Positions 956 to 58,879 of a stretch of DNA of 64,000 nt are shown here, in pieces. The notes under the pieces are model-generated. The model saw only the letters and a program-made list of their open reading frames with translations. It was not told the DNA's origin and made no database searches. Origin of the DNA: Escherichia virus TH38. Positions within the stretch are counted from its first letter, which is position 1; every line of letters begins with the position of its first letter. Where the stretch lies: sequence record MT446410.1, one strand, 5' to 3'. Both the position numbers and the translations under genes were made by a program.

Positions 956-2014
956 ATGGCTAATCCAACTTTATTTGTATCGTATGACCAGAATGGTAAA
1001 AAACTTTCTTTTGCTAACTGGATTTCTGTTCTGTCCCCTCAGGATACCCCGTTCGTATCTATGACCGGTAAAGAGTCTATCAACCAGACTATCTTTAGCT
1101 GGCAGACCGATGCACTGGCAAGCGTTGACGGTAATAACGCACACGTCGAAGGCTCTCGTGCTGAAGACGGCGAAATGAAACCGACTGTTATCAAATCTAA
1201 CGTTACTCAGATTCTGCGTAAGGTTGTTCGTGTTTCTGATACTGCTAACACCACCGCTAACTACGGGCGTGGTCGTGAACTGATGTATCAGCTGGAGAAG
1301 AAAGGTAAAGAGATCAAGCGTGACCTCGAGAAAATCCTTCTGTCCGGTCAGGCTCGTACCGATGTTCTGGCTGACCAGTATCTGACTAACTCGGCAACTG
1401 ATCCTGCTGTTGTTGGTCTGAATGACACCCATGCAGCTCGTAAGACTGGTGCATTCCAGTTCCTGTGTGCTCACGGTGGTCTGGCTGGTGGCGTTGTTGA
1501 CAAGACCAAGAATGGTCCTGCTGACCCGGATACTGGTGCAGTAACTGTTAAAGTTGCACAGAATGCTTCTAACCCGACCACTAACATTGGTTTCGACGAA
1601 GCTGATATCTTTGATATGACTCTGCAACTGTATACCGCTGGTTCTGAAGCAGATATCATCATGATTAACCCGGCTCATGCTAAGATCTTCGCTGGTCTGC
1701 AAGAAAATACTCAGGGTTCACGTAAGCGTATCTTTGAGAACACCAAGCAGTTCATCTACGAAGTTAACAGCATCACTGACCCGCTGGGCCAGAGCTACAA
1801 AATCATCGTTAACCGTTGGATGCCTACTGATGCAGTTTACTTCTTCCGTAGCGCTGACTGGACTCAGATGGTTCTGCGTGCTCCGAAACGTACTGAACTG
1901 GCTAAAGACGGTTCTTACGAGAAGTGGATGATTGAAATGGAAGTTGGTCTGCGTCACCGCAACCCGTATGCTTCCGGAGTTCTGTTCACTGCTGCGGGAA
2001 AGGTGGTGGCGTAA
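956..2014 (+). CDS. major capsid protein
   Basis: 352-aa ORF with RBS aggag upstream; position after scaffold; followed by in-phase Ig-like extension and strong terminator. Confidence 0.8.
   Translation: MANPTLFVSYDQNGKKLSFANWISVLSPQDTPFVSMTGKESINQTIFSWQTDALASVDGNNAHVEGSRAEDGEMKPTVIKSNVTQILRKVVRVSDTANTTANYGRGRELMYQLEKKGKEIKRDLEKILLSGQARTDVLADQYLTNSATDPAVVGLNDTHAARKTGAFQFLCAHGGLAGGVVDKTKNGPADPDTGAVTVKVAQNASNPTTNIGFDEADIFDMTLQLYTAGSEADIIMINPAHAKIFAGLQENTQGSRKRIFENTKQFIYEVNSITDPLGQSYKIIVNRWMPTDAVYFFRSADWTQMVLRAPKRTELAKDGSYEKWMIEMEVGLRHRNPYASGVLFTAAGKVVA
1996..2002 (+). promoter_or_regulatory. candidate -1 programmed ribosomal frameshift slippery heptamer G_GGA_AAG
   Basis: X_XXY_YYZ heptamer in capsid zero frame 12 nt before capsid stop; -1 frame is open from 1936 to 2538. 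Confidence 0.55.
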
Positions 2015-2538
2015 CAGTAGACAGTGTGACTGTTAGCCCTGCGTCTTTAGCAAGCCTAGAGACAGGGGCTACTCGGCAGTTCACTGCAAGCGCGGAGAAA
2101 AGTGATGGTTCTACCGAAACAACTGGCTTTACTTGGTCAGTGACAGGAGGTGGTTCTATCACTCAGTCGGGTTTGTATACTGCTCCGAGTGCGTCTCAAT
2201 CCACTGATGTATCCATTACTGCAACTTTAGAAGGTGTTTCTGGTACAGCAACAATTTCAGAAATTGTTGCTCCTGCTCCTACTATTGTAGCTAAGGGTCC
2301 TATTACGGGTAAAACTGGTGGTTCCTCCACTAATTTCACTACCATGTTTACTGTAACTAACTCTGCTGCTGCGGATTACACGTTTGTTGTAACTCCTAAA
2401 GAAGCCGGTACAGTAAGCGCCGCTGGTGCGTTAACCTTAGATGCTGCTGCAAGTGGCGAAGTTACTGTTCAAGCAAGTTTGACAGCTGACCCGTCCATCA
2501 ATGCAACATGCACTTTTACTGGTGTAACACCTGCTTAA
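2002..2538 (+). CDS. capsid C-terminal Ig-like (BIG2-type) extension, expressed as capsid fusion after -1 frameshift
   Basis: -1 frame open through 2538; translation is Thr/Ser/Ala/Val-rich with Ig-like beta-strand pattern; listed ORF 2026-2538 begins at GTG with no RBS at proper spacing. Confidence 0.55.
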   Translation, partial: GGGVTVDSVTVSPASLASLETGATRQFTASAEKSDGSTETTGFTWSVTGGGSITQSGLYTAPSASQSTDVSITATLEGVSGTATISEIVAPAPTIVAKGPITGKTGGSSTNFTTMFTVTNSAAADYTFVVTPKEAGTVSAAGALTLDAAASGEVTVQASLTADPSINATCTFTGVTPA

Positions 2539-49003: not shown

Positions 49004-51034
49004 TTAACCTCTATTCAATGAACATTTAGGAGAATTACAATAAACTTGATTCATAGAACCAAGCGTACAACTTTCAGCATCGCGCCACGGAATCTGCTTA
49101 AAACACTCTGAGCAGTATCCGAGGGTTGACCACATGGCTTTGGTGAAGTCAGTGCTTCGGTTTCCGTCGAAGCTGACAACAGTTTTGCGGAGAGCTGTTC
49201 GTGATTCAGGAAACACACCTGCTTTCTCAGCAGGTTCCTCCTTTTTTGGCTTAGTTGAGATTGCAAAAATACTGTTGCTACGTTTCTCAACATAAGCATC
49301 AACAACATCCTCCAGAGTGATGCCTGTCTGTTTCGCTGAGGAAGGTAATACAGTCATACGACCGATCATTTCTTCAGTTACACGTAAAGCAAACTCAGGA
49401 CGACGGGCGTTTGTTGTATCTGTTGCTTTAATCCAGACATAACCATCTTTGATTGTAGCATTAGATACTTTCTTCTTTACTTCTACAGCGCAGGTTTTAC
49501 AGATATCTTCACCACGAAGACGACTAAGTTCATCATCGAACTCATTTTCTGTTTTAACTTCACCGCAGATTTCACAAACACCAATAGGAGTTTCCTCCTC
49601 CTCTTCCTCTTTAGGTTTAGTCAAACCTTCCAGACATTCAGGATGCCAATAGCACTGATATGCGAAGACTGCTTTAGGTGCATCCTTCCAATCAATGTGC
49701 TTGTCACAACCACCACAATCACCATGAGAGTGTGCTTCCCAGAATTTACGAGTGATAGTAACGCCATTCTTGTTGACGAAACTATCATTCATATCAAAAG
49801 GGATATCATCATCGAAGTCAGCAGTAGTTGACTCAGGCTCCTTTTTCTCCAGAGATGGGTCAACAAAACGACCTGCTGTGATCACTAAACGGACCATAGC
49901 ATTGACTTCGGAGATGCAGGATACTGTCCCACGGTAAACAATTTTAGGGTCTTTCAGTGCATCCTGATAAGCCTTAATGTCTACGTTATGAACATCACCT
50001 TCGATGTACTCTTGAGACTTCTCATCGTAGATATAGCCAATCATCTTACCACGAGAAGGAACAGCACCAGCAGTTGCATAAGGAACAAACTCATGCGGAG
50101 TGATTTCCACAGTCATATCGCGGCGAATATCAATGTTTCGATCGCTTGCGATTTTGTTTTGACTTACCACTGCGTTTCTTCGACGAACGTCTGCCGCTGT
50201 CACTCCCGGCTTCGTGTCGTAAGGATTGCTTGTACTGCTTTTTGAGGAACTTTGATAATTGCTTTGGCTGTAGTTGTTCGAGTAGTAATTGCCCCAACGA
50301 TTGATTACCGTAAAAACCGGAAGCTCGTGGGCGACCTCTTCAACTAGAGTCATACTGTTGTTTGACATGTCAAAGATATACTCTGTACCAACTTTACATT
50401 CAAAGTGCTCGTCAATTCGGTTTTTGTGAGACTTAGAACGCTTCAGAATCCACATCAACATATCTTCTTCAGAAGCACCAAACCAATCTCTGTTACAACG
50501 TGCGAGATGGAAAGGACGCTCTTCGTTACGGATGATATGAAGACGGTTGTCAGAAGCATCATGCCAGATTAAGGTGAAAGCACCATCCAGCTTTTGAATA
50601 GTCTCTGCTGCACCAATAGTGTTAATAGAGTGGCAGATGTTCTCACTGTCTACCTCGAAGTTTTTGCTGTCAGGTAACAGATCTTGGTCCATCAAGGTTC
50701 CGTTATGAACCAGAGTGATGTTACCATGTTGGAAAGGATGGGCGTTCTTGGCGTTAACTGCACCTTTCGTTGCATGACGGCTGTGACCAACAATCCATGA
50801 AGGCGCTACAGTGTACGCTGTTTCACCAGTGGTATGCTTCTTGTACTCATCTTGTAGGATGAATGCGAAAGAAGGAAGAGCTTCTTTATAAGTGAAGACT
50901 TCCTTAGTGCTTTTACGCTGACCAAAGATACCGGAGGAATGTTGTCCTCGGAATACTCCAGCATAAAAGAGTTGGTTGAATACGTCTAAATCAGTGCTTG
51001 ACAGATTACCGCCAGCTAATACGATGCCACAAAT
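49004..51034 (-). CDS. class-II glutamine amidotransferase (Ntn) fused to Cys-rich C-terminal domain; probable ATT start
   Basis: Frame open 113 codons upstream of listed TTG start to in-frame stop at 51038-40; translation begins (ATT)-CGIVLAGG...RGQHSSGIFG...GHSRHATKG...NAHPF...VHNGTL = GATase-II motif set with Cys directly after initiator; RBS AGGTGG 8 nt upstream of ATT. Confidence 0.6.
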   Translation of the reverse strand: MCGIVLAGGNLSSTDLDVFNQLFYAGVFRGQHSSGIFGQRKSTKEVFTYKEALPSFAFILQDEYKKHTTGETAYTVAPSWIVGHSRHATKGAVNAKNAHPFQHGNITLVHNGTLMDQDLLPDSKNFEVDSENICHSINTIGAAETIQKLDGAFTLIWHDASDNRLHIIRNEERPFHLARCNRDWFGASEEDMLMWILKRSKSHKNRIDEHFECKVGTEYIFDMSNNSMTLVEEVAHELPVFTVINRWGNYYSNNYSQSNYQSSSKSSTSNPYDTKPGVTAADVRRRNAVVSQNKIASDRNIDIRRDMTVEITPHEFVPYATAGAVPSRGKMIGYIYDEKSQEYIEGDVHNVDIKAYQDALKDPKIVYRGTVSCISEVNAMVRLVITAGRFVDPSLEKKEPESTTADFDDDIPFDMNDSFVNKNGVTITRKFWEAHSHGDCGGCDKHIDWKDAPKAVFAYQCYWHPECLEGLTKPKEEEEEETPIGVCEICGEVKTENEFDDELSRLRGEDICKTCAVEVKKKVSNATIKDGYVWIKATDTTNARRPEFALRVTEEMIGRMTVLPSSAKQTGITLEDVVDAYVEKRSNSIFAISTKPKKEEPAEKAGVFPESRTALRKTVVSFDGNRSTDFTKAMWSTLGYCSECFKQIPWRDAESCTLGSMNQVYCNSPKCSLNRG

Positions 51035-51113
51035 TTTCTAATCCACCTGAAGGGTAAACCCTTTCATCTAATTAACCTTTAAATTGTGCCCCTTTATCAG
51101 AGGCACCCATTGA

Positions 51114-52217
51114 TTACAGCGCTTGCTCTAACTGATTTTCCAGATGGTCTGGAATGTACCCTGTGATATTGCTATCACTGTGACCTGACTCACGTAGTAA
51201 GTCAAAAATAGCACGGATACGCTGTTCTGGAGCGTGTCTTACTTGAGATAGGTCTGCTGTACGAAGCATAACCAGAATCTCTTGGTACAAATTGTTAGCG
51301 TTCCCTCGGACATATCCAAGGAATCCGTAGAAGTCTGACATATGACGTAAGTCAACAAGAACATCTCCGTTGGAGTTAGTTCTACGTAAACGAATACGAC
51401 CAGACTGTTCTACTTCATGAGAACGGCAATACAAAACATCACGGGCCATACAATACCCTGAATGCAAATCAGATTCATCCAGATTGTAATCTAGAGGAAG
51501 ATAAGGAAGCATTGGGGCGAATCGTACAGTATTTAAATGCTCAACAAACTGATCGTTGCTCATATCTGCGTTATCTAAAGCCAGCTTCTTCAACATCAAG
51601 AATCGGTTAACCAGATTGAGAAGTTGACCACGTTTCCACTTAGGCTCGCTGATACGGAACTCAATCGAACCGTATTGGGCAAGTGGCAGAAGGTTCAGGG
51701 ATGTATACTTATCCCATGAACGAACCAGACGGTTGAAGAACTCTTCACCATCGTAGTTAAATGCGTCAGAGGCATTCATTACCTGTGCTTGTACCACTGC
51801 AAATGCAGGGCAGAAGTTGCTACGGTAACGATGGTAGCCTGAACACTTGAACAACATCTTTTCATAGAAGGTCCAAGCGAGAATGGTTTTCTTGAGGATA
51901 TTACTATCAGCATCCCTCATATCCATATGAACGTGAGTAGAGCAACGCCAAGTCCCCTCGGCGTGCGATTCAGCTACTGCTTCACTCAGGTTGTTGATAG
52001 CGTCTAACAACTCCTGTCCGTTGTAAGGTCGTGAACATACCATTTCACAACCGTTACGCAGGGAACCATCCTCTGTGCAATCCCACATATCTGCTTCGAT
52101 ATGTTCAGAACCTTCGAGTTCAAGTTCAATACCGACACCGCACTGAAGTGCAATTGAACTATGCGCCTCAGTTAAACGACCTTCTCGATATCCAAAAGTT
52201 TGCGCTACAGTTGTCAT
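51114..52217 (-). CDS. GS-like amidoligase (COOH-NH2 ligase family) candidate
   Basis: GVGIELELEG (GxExExE) and EDGSL motifs; 367 aa. Confidence 0.4.
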   Translation of the reverse strand: MTTVAQTFGYREGRLTEAHSSIALQCGVGIELELEGSEHIEADMWDCTEDGSLRNGCEMVCSRPYNGQELLDAINNLSEAVAESHAEGTWRCSTHVHMDMRDADSNILKKTILAWTFYEKMLFKCSGYHRYRSNFCPAFAVVQAQVMNASDAFNYDGEEFFNRLVRSWDKYTSLNLLPLAQYGSIEFRISEPKWKRGQLLNLVNRFLMLKKLALDNADMSNDQFVEHLNTVRFAPMLPYLPLDYNLDESDLHSGYCMARDVLYCRSHEVEQSGRIRLRRTNSNGDVLVDLRHMSDFYGFLGYVRGNANNLYQEILVMLRTADLSQVRHAPEQRIRAIFDLLRESGHSDSNITGYIPDHLENQLEQAL

Positions 52218-52831
52218 AACGAATCCACCAACGTAATATTATAATTGCTAAGGTTTTCAGAGATGTGATGAAAATGTTCCAGAAGTCGCATCGGTTGTTG
52301 ACCGTAAGAGTCACGAGGCGCTTCCAGATCTACCTGACCTACCAGTGCACCTTTATAATGCACTTTACCATCTGTAGGATTGATGTAAATATAACGAGTA
52401 ACCAATCCATCAAATTCAGGATTGAACAGACTGTAAACCATTTCACCAGAGATCGAACGACCAATCCCCGGAGCGTTTCGAATCTTGTTACCCATCAAAC
52501 CCTTCGCTCTCTGACGAACAGGATTGATATGAGTCCAGCTTACAGTGTTACCGTTATGGAACAGATAACCAACATCAGGTGATTCGAGAATCAAGGTTGG
52601 GTCGAACACTGGAATATTCATCGTAGTGTTTCGGAGATTCCCATGCTCGTTCTTGTACCACTGCTCTACAACAAAGTACAGAGCCTGTTCTGCTTCATGT
52701 GAGAAGTCATCGCTGCGGAAGTTACCGCTCTGCTCAACACCAATCACAAAACACGGAAGGTTGATATTACCTGCTCGTTTAGCAATCCATGTACCATTAT
52801 AGTAATGAGAAAAATCAGCTATTAAGCTCAC
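52214..52831 (-). CDS. hypothetical protein in ligase operon
   Basis: 205-aa ORF, start overlaps upstream stop. Confidence 0.4.
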   Translation of the reverse strand: MSLIADFSHYYNGTWIAKRAGNINLPCFVIGVEQSGNFRSDDFSHEAEQALYFVVEQWYKNEHGNLRNTTMNIPVFDPTLILESPDVGYLFHNGNTVSWTHINPVRQRAKGLMGNKIRNAPGIGRSISGEMVYSLFNPEFDGLVTRYIYINPTDGKVHYKGALVGQVDLEAPRDSYGQQPMRLLEHFHHISENLSNYNITLVDSL

Positions 52832-58331: not shown

Positions 58332-58621
58332 ACATCCTCCAATTAAATATTTATGTAAGACTTGCTTAGATAAAGATTCAATAAAATAGGGGGAGGGGAC
58401 GAATCCTCCCTTATCCTATTAGTTAATATTGCATGTAAGATCTAACAATCGGTTGCCTTTGTAGGAATAAGCGTAAAGCCAATCCAGCACTAAACTCCCG
58501 CCCCCTTAGTGGGCTGGGTTATTAAAGGGTAACGCCCTTATGGGCTAGTTACATGAATGTTAGTTTGATAGGAGATCTGAAGTCCTATCTCAAAGGACTC
58601 TCGTAAGAATCCTTCACGATA

Positions 58622-58879
58622 TTACTTAAAGATAAAATGCATAACTGCGTCATATGCTTTAAACAGAAGCCAACCTATTGGATAAAAAACTCCTGCCAGT
58701 ATTGAGATAGGCCACAACACAATTAAGAGCACAACCATCATCTCATCAGGTTCAGAGCTGGTAGACCCTGTTGTAATGACCCCTTTTAGTAGACCTTTCT
58801 TGTATAGCAGTTTCAGCACTAAAACAGAAAGGAATACTCCAATAAAGTAAACTGAGATAAAAATATCAAGTAAACCCAT
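58622..58879 (-). CDS. small membrane protein (2 TM)
   Basis: Hydrophobic segments FISVYFIGVFLSVLVLKLL and VVLLIVLWPISILAGVF. Confidence 0.45.
   Translation of the reverse strand: MGLLDIFISVYFIGVFLSVLVLKLLYKKGLLKGVITTGSTSSEPDEMMVVLLIVLWPISILAGVFYPIGWLLFKAYDAVMHFIFK

Follow-up and report, generated by a model that had tools for sequence, protein, structure and literature searches.

The question raised by the glutamine amidotransferase gene of Escherichia virus TH38 is where its translation begins. The gene lies on the minus strand of the 64,000-nucleotide stretch of DNA analysed here (record MT446410.1; the window, to which all positions refer) and is the ortholog of phi32_83 of phage phiEco32. 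An earlier reading of the letters alone (the sequence-only reading) had described the frame accurately: the listed open reading frame (ORF; 49004..50695, minus strand, 563 amino acids) starts with TTG, and the same frame stays open upstream to a TAG at 51040-51038, through 114 codons (AAA, ATT and 112 more), or 113 when counted from ATT. Three options had been offered for this ATT: a rare initiation codon as in E. coli infC, a sequencing error, or a pseudogenised start. The comparisons reported here select the first. Most probably, the gene is intact, expressed early and initiated at AUU, in part de novo and in part by re-initiation from a short upstream ORF, whose AUG would be the old start of the gene, displaced by an insertion.

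The frame is open on the minus strand from TAG 51040-51038 to TAA 49006-49004. Between the TAG and the TGT at 51029..51031, which encodes the catalytic N-terminal nucleophile (Cys, residue 2 before removal of Met), ATT (51032..51034, minus strand) is the sole start-like codon, as had been claimed before; it is the only near-cognate codon ahead of Cys, and no in-frame ATG, GTG or TTG occurs between the TAG and codon 114. ATT is thus the only possible start for a protein that has Cys first. The minus strand reads AGGTGG AT TAG AAA ATT TGT GGC ATC GTA, with the Shine-Dalgarno sequence (SD) AGGTGG (51048-51043) 8 nt ahead of ATT, exactly where it had been placed. With AUU as the proposed initiation codon, read by initiator formylmethionyl-tRNA (fMet-tRNA), the full-length coding sequence (CDS) would be 49004..51034, minus strand, which is 676 codons plus TAA. 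The mass of the product is 76.2 kDa from ATT versus 63.9 kDa from the TTG-start ORF, and PHROG 4736 matches residues 2-517 of the full-length protein (E 3e-202).

The ATT is conserved without exception among close relatives. A 55-nt core containing it was matched at at least 99% identity in 96 of 96 related phage records (the genomes of the phage collection that hold the gene at a protein identity of at least 80%), and the same query with ATG replacing ATT reached 99% identity in none of them. Seven independent metagenome assemblies likewise carry ATT. The comparison with orthologs that the sequence-only reading had proposed thus found ATT fixed inside the clade; distant orthologs do start with ATG-TGT, but they belong to other lineages and have a different leader.

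The extension behind the ATT bears the marks of a coding sequence. For codons 2-113, the ratio of non-synonymous to synonymous substitution rates (dN/dS) was 0.098 in the comparison with the KBNP1711 clade. Synonymous sites were saturated relative to both the KBNP1711-type and the ECBP2/SU7-type clades (proportion of differing synonymous sites, pS, 0.65-0.75), with a non-synonymous divergence of 0.13-0.16. Where dS could be computed, dN/dS in the extension was about 0.1, equal to the value for the part downstream of the TTG, and no frameshift or stop was found within codons 2-113 in any of the three clades. Because non-synonymous sites are constrained while synonymous sites are saturated, codons 2-113 are, to judge from the substitution pattern, translated. 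The same data exclude a pseudogenised start.

The extension encodes the N-terminus of a class-II amidotransferase (K-I-CGIVLAGG...RGQHSSG...GHSRHATKG...NAHPF...VHNG), as the motifs had suggested. A search with profile hidden Markov models found Pfam GATase_6 (E 1.1e-14, 55 bits versus a cut-off of 27, residues 76-176), GATase_7 (27.4 bits versus a cut-off of 25) and GATase_4. A search of the PDB with the single sequence yielded no match and the family profile was needed; a profile of ten family members matched GlmS, PurF and AsnB, with MCGIV aligned to GlmS residues 1-5 and the Cys, invariant in the family alignment, falling on C2 of GlmS M1-C2. The AlphaFold model of residues 1-240, predicted with database homologs, had a mean predicted local distance difference test (pLDDT) of 91 and a predicted template-modelling score (pTM) of 0.90. 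In this model the first beta-strand begins at residue 3, six beta-strands lie within residues 3-111, and the domain adopts the four-layer alpha-beta-beta-alpha fold of N-terminal nucleophile (Ntn) hydrolases. Foldseek against the PDB returned the GlmS glutaminase domain (1xff, E 2.4e-13, template-modelling scores 0.69/0.69) and also PurF, EgtC and AsnB. The class-II (Ntn) glutamine amidotransferase/amidohydrolase domain, covering residues 2 to ~235 (50330..51031, minus strand) by Pfam, PDB profile, AlphaFold and Foldseek, is real, and half of it sits in the extension. The family alignment shows no variation at C2, R86, N111, G112 and D129, which are equivalent to Cys1, Arg73, Asn98-Gly99 and Asp123 of GlmS (HTRWATHG, VHNG and ETDTE aligned). 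Four of these five glutamine-site residues (C2, R86, N111 and G112) are located upstream of the listed TTG. This TTG (codon 114, 50693..50695, minus strand), the start chosen by ORF finders and in most GenBank records, falls within the conserved HNGTLMDQ core and is preceded by an SD of -3.5 kcal/mol (rank 109 of 128); on these comparisons it is not the real start.

The protein is not a GlmS. The RefSeq/PHROG name of the product, L-glutamine-D-fructose-6-phosphate aminotransferase, was considered and rejected: no SIS domain was found by Pfam in the full-length protein, and the NCBIfam GlmS models scored about a tenth of their cut-offs (PRK00331, 43 bits versus 381; TIGR01135, 35.8 versus 418), with residues 2-197 alone aligning. 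Judged by these profiles, the name is an over-annotation. No fused synthase (acceptor) domain was recognised in the protein, and the adjacent amidoligases are, by inference, candidate acceptor partners. Judged by the modelled fold and its residues, the enzyme could be an EgtC-like gamma-glutamyl amidohydrolase or else a glutaminase that supplies the neighbouring ligases with ammonia. The C-terminal ~440 residues are Cys-rich and phage-specific, with four CxxC motifs (at residues 440, 487, 512 and 641) that suggest zinc ribbons; no Pfam match was obtained in this region, where the sole match is that of PHROG 4736, reaching residue 517. Residues 241-676 (49007-50314, minus strand) consist of a Ser/Asn/Tyr-rich linker (~245-275) followed by the CxxC region and an acidic EEEEEE stretch.

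The sequence ahead of the ATT does not vary at all. When seven genomes from three clades were aligned, an uninterrupted run of 55 columns (263-317) proved invariant, corresponding to TAAAGGTTAATTAGATGAAAGGGTTTACCCTTCAGGTGGATTAGAAAATTTGTGG at 51027..51081 (minus strand); the block is common to Kuravirus, the KBNP1711/Bas89 type and the SU7/ECBP2 (Suseptimavirus) type, and the next longest invariant run in the same alignment is 14 nt. The block includes 47 non-coding nucleotides ahead of ATT (naive P ~4e-33). Since third-codon positions flanking the leader are invariant at 20-24%, these 47 unchanged bases are not neutral. The exact match to SU7 at the leader is 58 nt long, the second-longest between 40 and 60 kb of the window (the next in the 47-56 kb cluster is 36 nt); it is not extreme genome-wide, as recombinant patches of up to 650 nt occur elsewhere.

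Within the leader lies an upstream ORF of nine codons, ATG AAA GGG TTT ACC CTT CAG GTG GAT TAG (MKGFTLQVD*, 51038..51067, minus strand), invariant in all clades. Its ATG is directly preceded by a stop codon, it shares the frame of the main ORF, and between its own stop and ATT there are 3 nt. AGGTGG (51043..51048, minus strand), the putative SD for ATT with an 8-nt spacer, is contained in codons 7-9 of the upstream ORF and has an anti-SD duplex energy of -5.9 kcal/mol, versus a median of -6.0 for phiEco32 genes. AAAGG (51076..51080, minus strand; duplex -3.4 kcal/mol), which appears to be an ancestral SD, is found 8 nt upstream of the upstream-ORF ATG. A small hairpin, AAGGG-TTTA-CCCTT (51050..51063, minus strand), is situated within the upstream ORF, immediately ahead of the SD, and is no stabler than shuffled sequences. 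Between the amidoligase stop and the leader there is an 8-bp hairpin (51086..51106, minus strand) in which one U-A pair has become C-G in the SU7/ECBP2 clade, a compensatory change; the hairpin was not scored as an intrinsic terminator in the scan and is without a proper U-tract.

The origin of this arrangement can be read from the closest lineage with an ATG start, L105/P0001, which is 72% identical and sister in the tree. L105 reads AATTTAAAGG-AAAAGATA-ATG-TGT-GGA-ATC-GTA-TTA, and the window reads AATTTAAAGG-TTAATTAG-ATG-[33 nt]-TGT-GGC-ATC-GTA-TTA. The SD and its 8-nt spacing to ATG are alike in the two, the ATG being that of the upstream ORF in the window and the real start in L105/P0001. 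The 33-nt in-frame segment, AAAGGGTTTACCCTTCAGGTGGATTAGAAAATT (51032..51064, minus strand), is not in the sister and holds the small hairpin, the SD, the TAG, AAA and ATT. In the simplest reading, the upstream-ORF ATG would be the former start, displaced by a 33-nt (11-codon) in-frame insertion, and the length of this insertion would also account for the upstream ORF lying in the frame of the main ORF. A second copy of the leader or of the 33-nt segment was found neither in the window nor in E. coli genomes. More distant homologs begin with ATG-TGT (MCG...), including those of Proteus, Salmonella SE131, Aeromonas LAh_9, Vibrio, LUZ24, RIO-1, JB8 and Arthrobacter phages and of many metagenome contigs. 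ATT is hence a derived state that has become fixed in the phiEco32-like subfamily.

The use of ATT before the Cys codon is not confined to this subfamily. Clustering of 114 loci at 80% identity gave 51 clusters, in which the codon before Cys was ATG in 46, ATT in 4, GTG in 1 and TTG in 1; one mixed cluster (L029/L104) was counted under both ATG and ATT. ATT is thus the commonest non-ATG start in the family, also when PA11, sampled separately, is added as a second TTG case. The metagenome scan relied on internal motifs and was thus free of start-codon bias; one of the two patterns used for viral contigs did include [MI]CGIV, and L129 and L130 do not fit that pattern. Beside the phiEco32-like subfamily, ATT precedes Cys in three lineages, in every case behind a good SD. 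L129 and L130, two viral contigs from different samples (ATT at position 401), have the SD AGGAGG with an 8-nt spacer; a TAG lies four codons ahead of the ATT, no canonical start intervenes, and a sister lineage could not be assigned to them. L049, a single contig (position 601), has the SD GAGGAGAAGG and an in-frame TTG five codons upstream of ATT, and its sister L051 (71% identical) starts with ATG. L104, also a single contig (position 1720), reads AGGTGA-CTAAA-ATT-TGT with an in-frame GTG three codons upstream, and its sister L029 (84% identical) has ATG. An exact-pattern search of IMG/VR retrieved no further members of the L104 or L049 lineages.

The analysis shows that ATT is conserved, that the extension is under selection, which fold the domain has, how the junction is built and how the sister lineage compares. 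Beyond this, we infer that AUU is used, that the upstream ORF is translated, that the two are coupled and that initiation is sensitive to initiation factor 3 (IF3). The proposed initiation region would consist of AAAGG, 8 nt, the AUG of the nine-codon upstream ORF, the small hairpin, AGGUGG, 2 nt, UAG, AAA and AUU. Initiator fMet-tRNA would start translation at AUU 51034-51032, partly by de novo initiation via the AGGUGG SD. The other part would come from ribosomes that end the upstream ORF at UAG, the SD shifting the 30S subunit from GAU/UAG 6 nt downstream to AUU. Deformylase and then methionine aminopeptidase would strip the Met, leaving Cys as residue 1 and catalytic nucleophile; exposure of Cys by removal of Met is well established for Ntn hydrolases and this aminopeptidase. 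An AUU start followed by Met removal would give the N-terminal peptide CGIVLAGGNLSSTDLDVFNQLFYAGVFR with a free amino group. A weak AUU, discriminated against by IF3, would hold output below the level of an AUG and tie it to the state of the host initiation factors. In evolutionary terms, the 33-nt in-frame insertion would have split the old AUG from the Cys codon and brought the hairpin, the stop, a new SD, AAA and ATT.

Several observations weigh against this model. The SD of the upstream ORF is weak (-3.4 kcal/mol, rank 109 of 128) and the hairpin starts 2 nt after the upstream-ORF AUG. The leader structures are no stabler than shuffles (z +0.13 to -1.9). Because the leader never varies, covariation and coding selection on the upstream ORF leave no testable signal, and its invariance could stem from another function, for instance a regulator binding site. 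AUU is a poor start and its SD is of median strength, yet the protein is among the better-detected non-structural proteins: mass spectrometry of phage SU10, itself evidence in favour of an expressed gene, found nine peptides (23.7% coverage; PMC4281155). That search used the truncated 63.8-kDa annotation and hence is silent on the N-terminus. The three additional ATT lineages are each represented by one or two metagenome contigs, and in L104 and L049 the in-frame GTG and TTG may offer an alternative start with a short propeptide.

The best-surviving alternative is that AUU is used by ordinary de novo initiation alone, the upstream ORF being an untranslated relic and the leader being kept as a regulator site or an RNA-processing or stability element. 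We regard this as possible, though clearly the less likely case. The weak upstream SD and the hairpin that abuts the AUG fit it, as does the invariance of the leader spacers, which a minimal coupling model does not require, and another invariant intergenic block (58565-58628) is present in the same early region. Against it, the junction, with its SD 2 nt before the stop and its stop-3 nt-AUU spacing, mirrors that of infC, and the ancestral SD-8 nt-AUG module is still intact; nor does the leader contain an Rfam family (chance-level matches alone, far below the gathering scores), a significant structure, or a motif repeated in the window. Two alternative hairpins of small size can be drawn, and the 5' end of the leader could also pair over a distance with codons 4-8; neither statistics nor covariation supports any of these pairings.

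A start at the upstream-ORF AUG (51067) with readthrough of the UAG would yield a 12-residue propeptide (MKGFTLQVD-X-KI), the autocatalytic removal of which would expose Cys. Propeptide processing is established for some class-II amidotransferases, such as PurF of B. subtilis. The common frame of the upstream and main ORFs invites this idea, but it is accounted for by the 11-codon insertion; and while short propeptides are conceivable in L104 and L049, where no stop separates the GTG or TTG from the ATT three to five codons downstream, in L129 and L130 a stop is reached four codons ahead of the ATT, before any start. Furthermore, the UAG is fixed in 96 of 96 genomes, the sole tRNA found in a scan of the window is Arg-TCT and no suppressor, wild E. 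coli hosts are normally without amber suppressors, the ORFs of the window are free of in-frame TAG interruptions, and all homologs of the ATG type begin directly with Met-Cys. Readthrough is therefore very improbable.

Still less credible is a protein made from TTG114 or ATG115, with codons 1-113 untranslated and the domain a decaying remnant. That start is the one called by gene finders and in most GenBank records, and the 63.8 kDa listed in the SU10 paper would agree with it, but this figure was computed from the annotation and not measured. A decaying remnant is at odds with a dN/dS of ~0.1 over codons 2-113, as downstream, with frames intact in three clades and with invariant catalytic residues; TTG114 and ATG115 also lie inside a beta-strand region of the modelled fold and have a weak SD. 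Finally, a sequencing or assembly error for ATG, which has nothing but the rarity of ATT starts to recommend it, is excluded for all practical purposes by ATT in 96 independently sequenced phage genomes and seven metagenome contigs and the lack of any match to an ATG version.

The preferred reading, initiation at AUU, agrees with a public annotation that dates from 2008. In phiEco32 (EU330206, 2008, and NC_010324), phi32_83 (ABY52884.1/YP_001671828.1) is annotated from the same ATT, with an identical leader and 98.4% nucleotide identity over 2.4 kb; among the 128 CDS starts of that genome (112 ATG, 13 GTG and 2 TTG) it is the one ATT. The ATT start is thus not new as an annotation. As far as could be found, there is no earlier description of the junction of infC type, of the apparent demotion of the old AUG, of the unvarying leader or of the repeated occurrence of ATT in the family. 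Most GenBank records of phiEco32-like phages start the protein at TTG114 or ATG115 and lack the catalytic Cys: among the 60 records listed, 9 cover the ATT, 5 are unannotated and 46 have no CDS over the first codons, and in the SU7 record the ATG of codon 11 serves as the start. When the N-terminal 240 residues were searched against 5.8 billion predicted proteins, no close relative of full length came up, probably because gene callers truncate the gene. Of the 55 annotated records among those listed, at least 46 leave the first codons without a CDS, and the public version of the enzyme therefore lacks the catalytic Cys and three more of the five glutamine-site residues, so that structural, functional or proteomic work on this module would begin from the wrong protein.

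The gene is part of a conserved early module (47358-52831, minus strand; phi32_77 to phi32_88 in phiEco32) that comprises an ATP-grasp-like protein, two small ORFs, the amidotransferase and an Amidoligase_2 protein; the phiEco32 annotations also place in the module other genes for COOH-NH2 ligases and one for a gamma-glutamyl cyclotransferase. The upstream neighbour is the Amidoligase_2 protein (51114-52217, minus strand; stop TAA 51116-51114), and the downstream neighbour is the ATP-grasp-like protein (47358-48560, minus strand), recognised by weak Pfam matches. The SU10 mass spectrometry also picked up the ATP-grasp protein and the cyclotransferase-like protein of this module, along with the amidotransferase. 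Over the 2.4 kb around the gene, identity is 99.8% with Escherichia virus TH06 and 98.4% with phiEco32 (Kuravirus, Gordonclarkvirinae); 97 phage records match this stretch, and the window itself belongs to a Kuravirus.

Some further features of the region were noted. The consensus of the phiEco32 gp36 promoter is tAATGTAtA (PMC8948821); it is absent from the leader, and the gene strand there yielded no sigma-70-like site either. In relatives of 88-92 kb with an ATG start (L014/L031, L015/L033, L005, L113 and L114), TTTAAATGTAAA is conserved 25-45 nt upstream of the ATG and agrees with the core of the gp36 consensus, whereas the corresponding phiEco32-like TTTAAAGGTTAA does not; TTTAAATGTAAA may be a promoter lost from, or never present in, the phiEco32 lineage. 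On the plus strand, a sigma-70-like match (50998-51025; TTGACA, 16 nt, TACGAT, 10 of 12 positions) is antisense to codons 4-13, and RNA made from it would be complementary to the leader; the TTGACA is not kept in the SU7 clade, and the match is probably due to chance. The intergenic block at 58565-58628 (64 nt, minus strand), just downstream of the ORF with its end at 58622, does not differ between the window and SU7 and is their longest exact match between 40 and 60 kb. It can form two hairpins, GAAGGATTCTTACGAGAGTCCTTT and GATAGGACTTCAGATCTCCTATC, and may serve as a terminator or processing site or encode a small RNA. A survey of the window for other genes with a long conserved region ahead of the first canonical start returned the capsid/Ig-like frameshift region alone. 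There, the ORF at 1936-2538 (plus strand), an Ig-like gene after the major head protein, carries, ahead of its first canonical start, 30 codons that are conserved at 93% between the window and SU7. For this region of SU10, a product of ribosomal slippage, gp9+10 of 55.4 kDa, has been reported (PMC4281155), and the upstream region in the window looks like this known capsid frameshift extension.

If AUU initiation holds, the catalytic Cys fixes the start of the protein, and the family would act as a natural reporter of how frequent non-canonical starts are in phages; should the recurrence of ATT stand as well, non-canonical initiation in phages may exceed what annotation suggests. The gene would also provide a compact and genetically tractable system in which the cooperation of AUU, SD and a terminating ribosome, and the use that a phage makes of start-codon discrimination by IF3, could be addressed, with an evolutionary history, the demotion of the old AUG to an upstream ORF, that is readable from sister lineages.

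As an enzyme, the phage protein shares with the glutaminase domains of GlmS, PurF and AsnB and with the stand-alone Ntn amidohydrolase EgtC the Ntn fold, the N-terminal Cys and the glutamine site of Arg, Asn-Gly and Asp. It differs from all four in sequence (identity of just 13-19%), and it has no sugar-isomerase, phosphoribosyltransferase or synthetase partner domain. Phage gene clusters combining amidoligase, ATP-grasp ligase, GATase-II and gamma-glutamyl cyclotransferase were reportedly described by Iyer, Abhiman, Burroughs and Aravind in 2009, and the neighbours found here match them (Amidoligase_2, the ATP-grasp-like protein, and the COOH-NH2 ligases and cyclotransferase annotated in phiEco32).

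As an initiation site, the locus resembles infC more closely than the sequence-only reading had stated. The thrS-infC junction of E. coli K-12 reads TTGGAGGAATAAGGTATTAAAGGC in NC_000913.3, and the two junctions, GGAGG-AA-TAA-GGT-ATT in infC and GGTGG-AT-TAG-AAA-ATT in the phage, are identical in geometry: both have an AUU start, an SD inside the preceding ORF 2 nt before its stop, and stop-3 nt-AUU spacing. The likeness is architectural, without sequence homology. Unlike in infC, the preceding ORF in the phage is a nine-codon mini-ORF and not a full gene, and the product is not a translation factor, so that no autoregulatory loop arises. Osterman et al. (PMC3592434) found AUG and GUG to be six to eight times more efficient than UUG and AUU in a typical context, and singled out the infC-type junction for its 3-nt gap, with re-initiation contributing about as much as de novo initiation. 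Re-initiation was shown by Yoo and RajBhandary (PMC2268962) to require initiator tRNA and to be depressed by excess IF3. Tentatively, then, the leader could be a phage version of the infC principle, in which the mini-ORF feeds the AUU and output tracks the IF3/ribosome balance of the host during early infection, and AUU (four lineages versus one GTG and two TTG in this survey, PA11 included) could be a recurrent, selected start in phage Ntn amidotransferases; we see this wider proposal as possible but rather doubtful. The second chromosomal AUU-start gene of E. coli is pcnB, encoding poly(A) polymerase I (Binns and Masters 2002, as cited in PMC3592434), in which the inefficient AUU limits expression of the enzyme, as proposed here for the phage gene. 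Natural AUU starts are thus very few, with infC and pcnB in E. coli; the phage gene would join them, with an AUU that is fixed across a whole subfamily.

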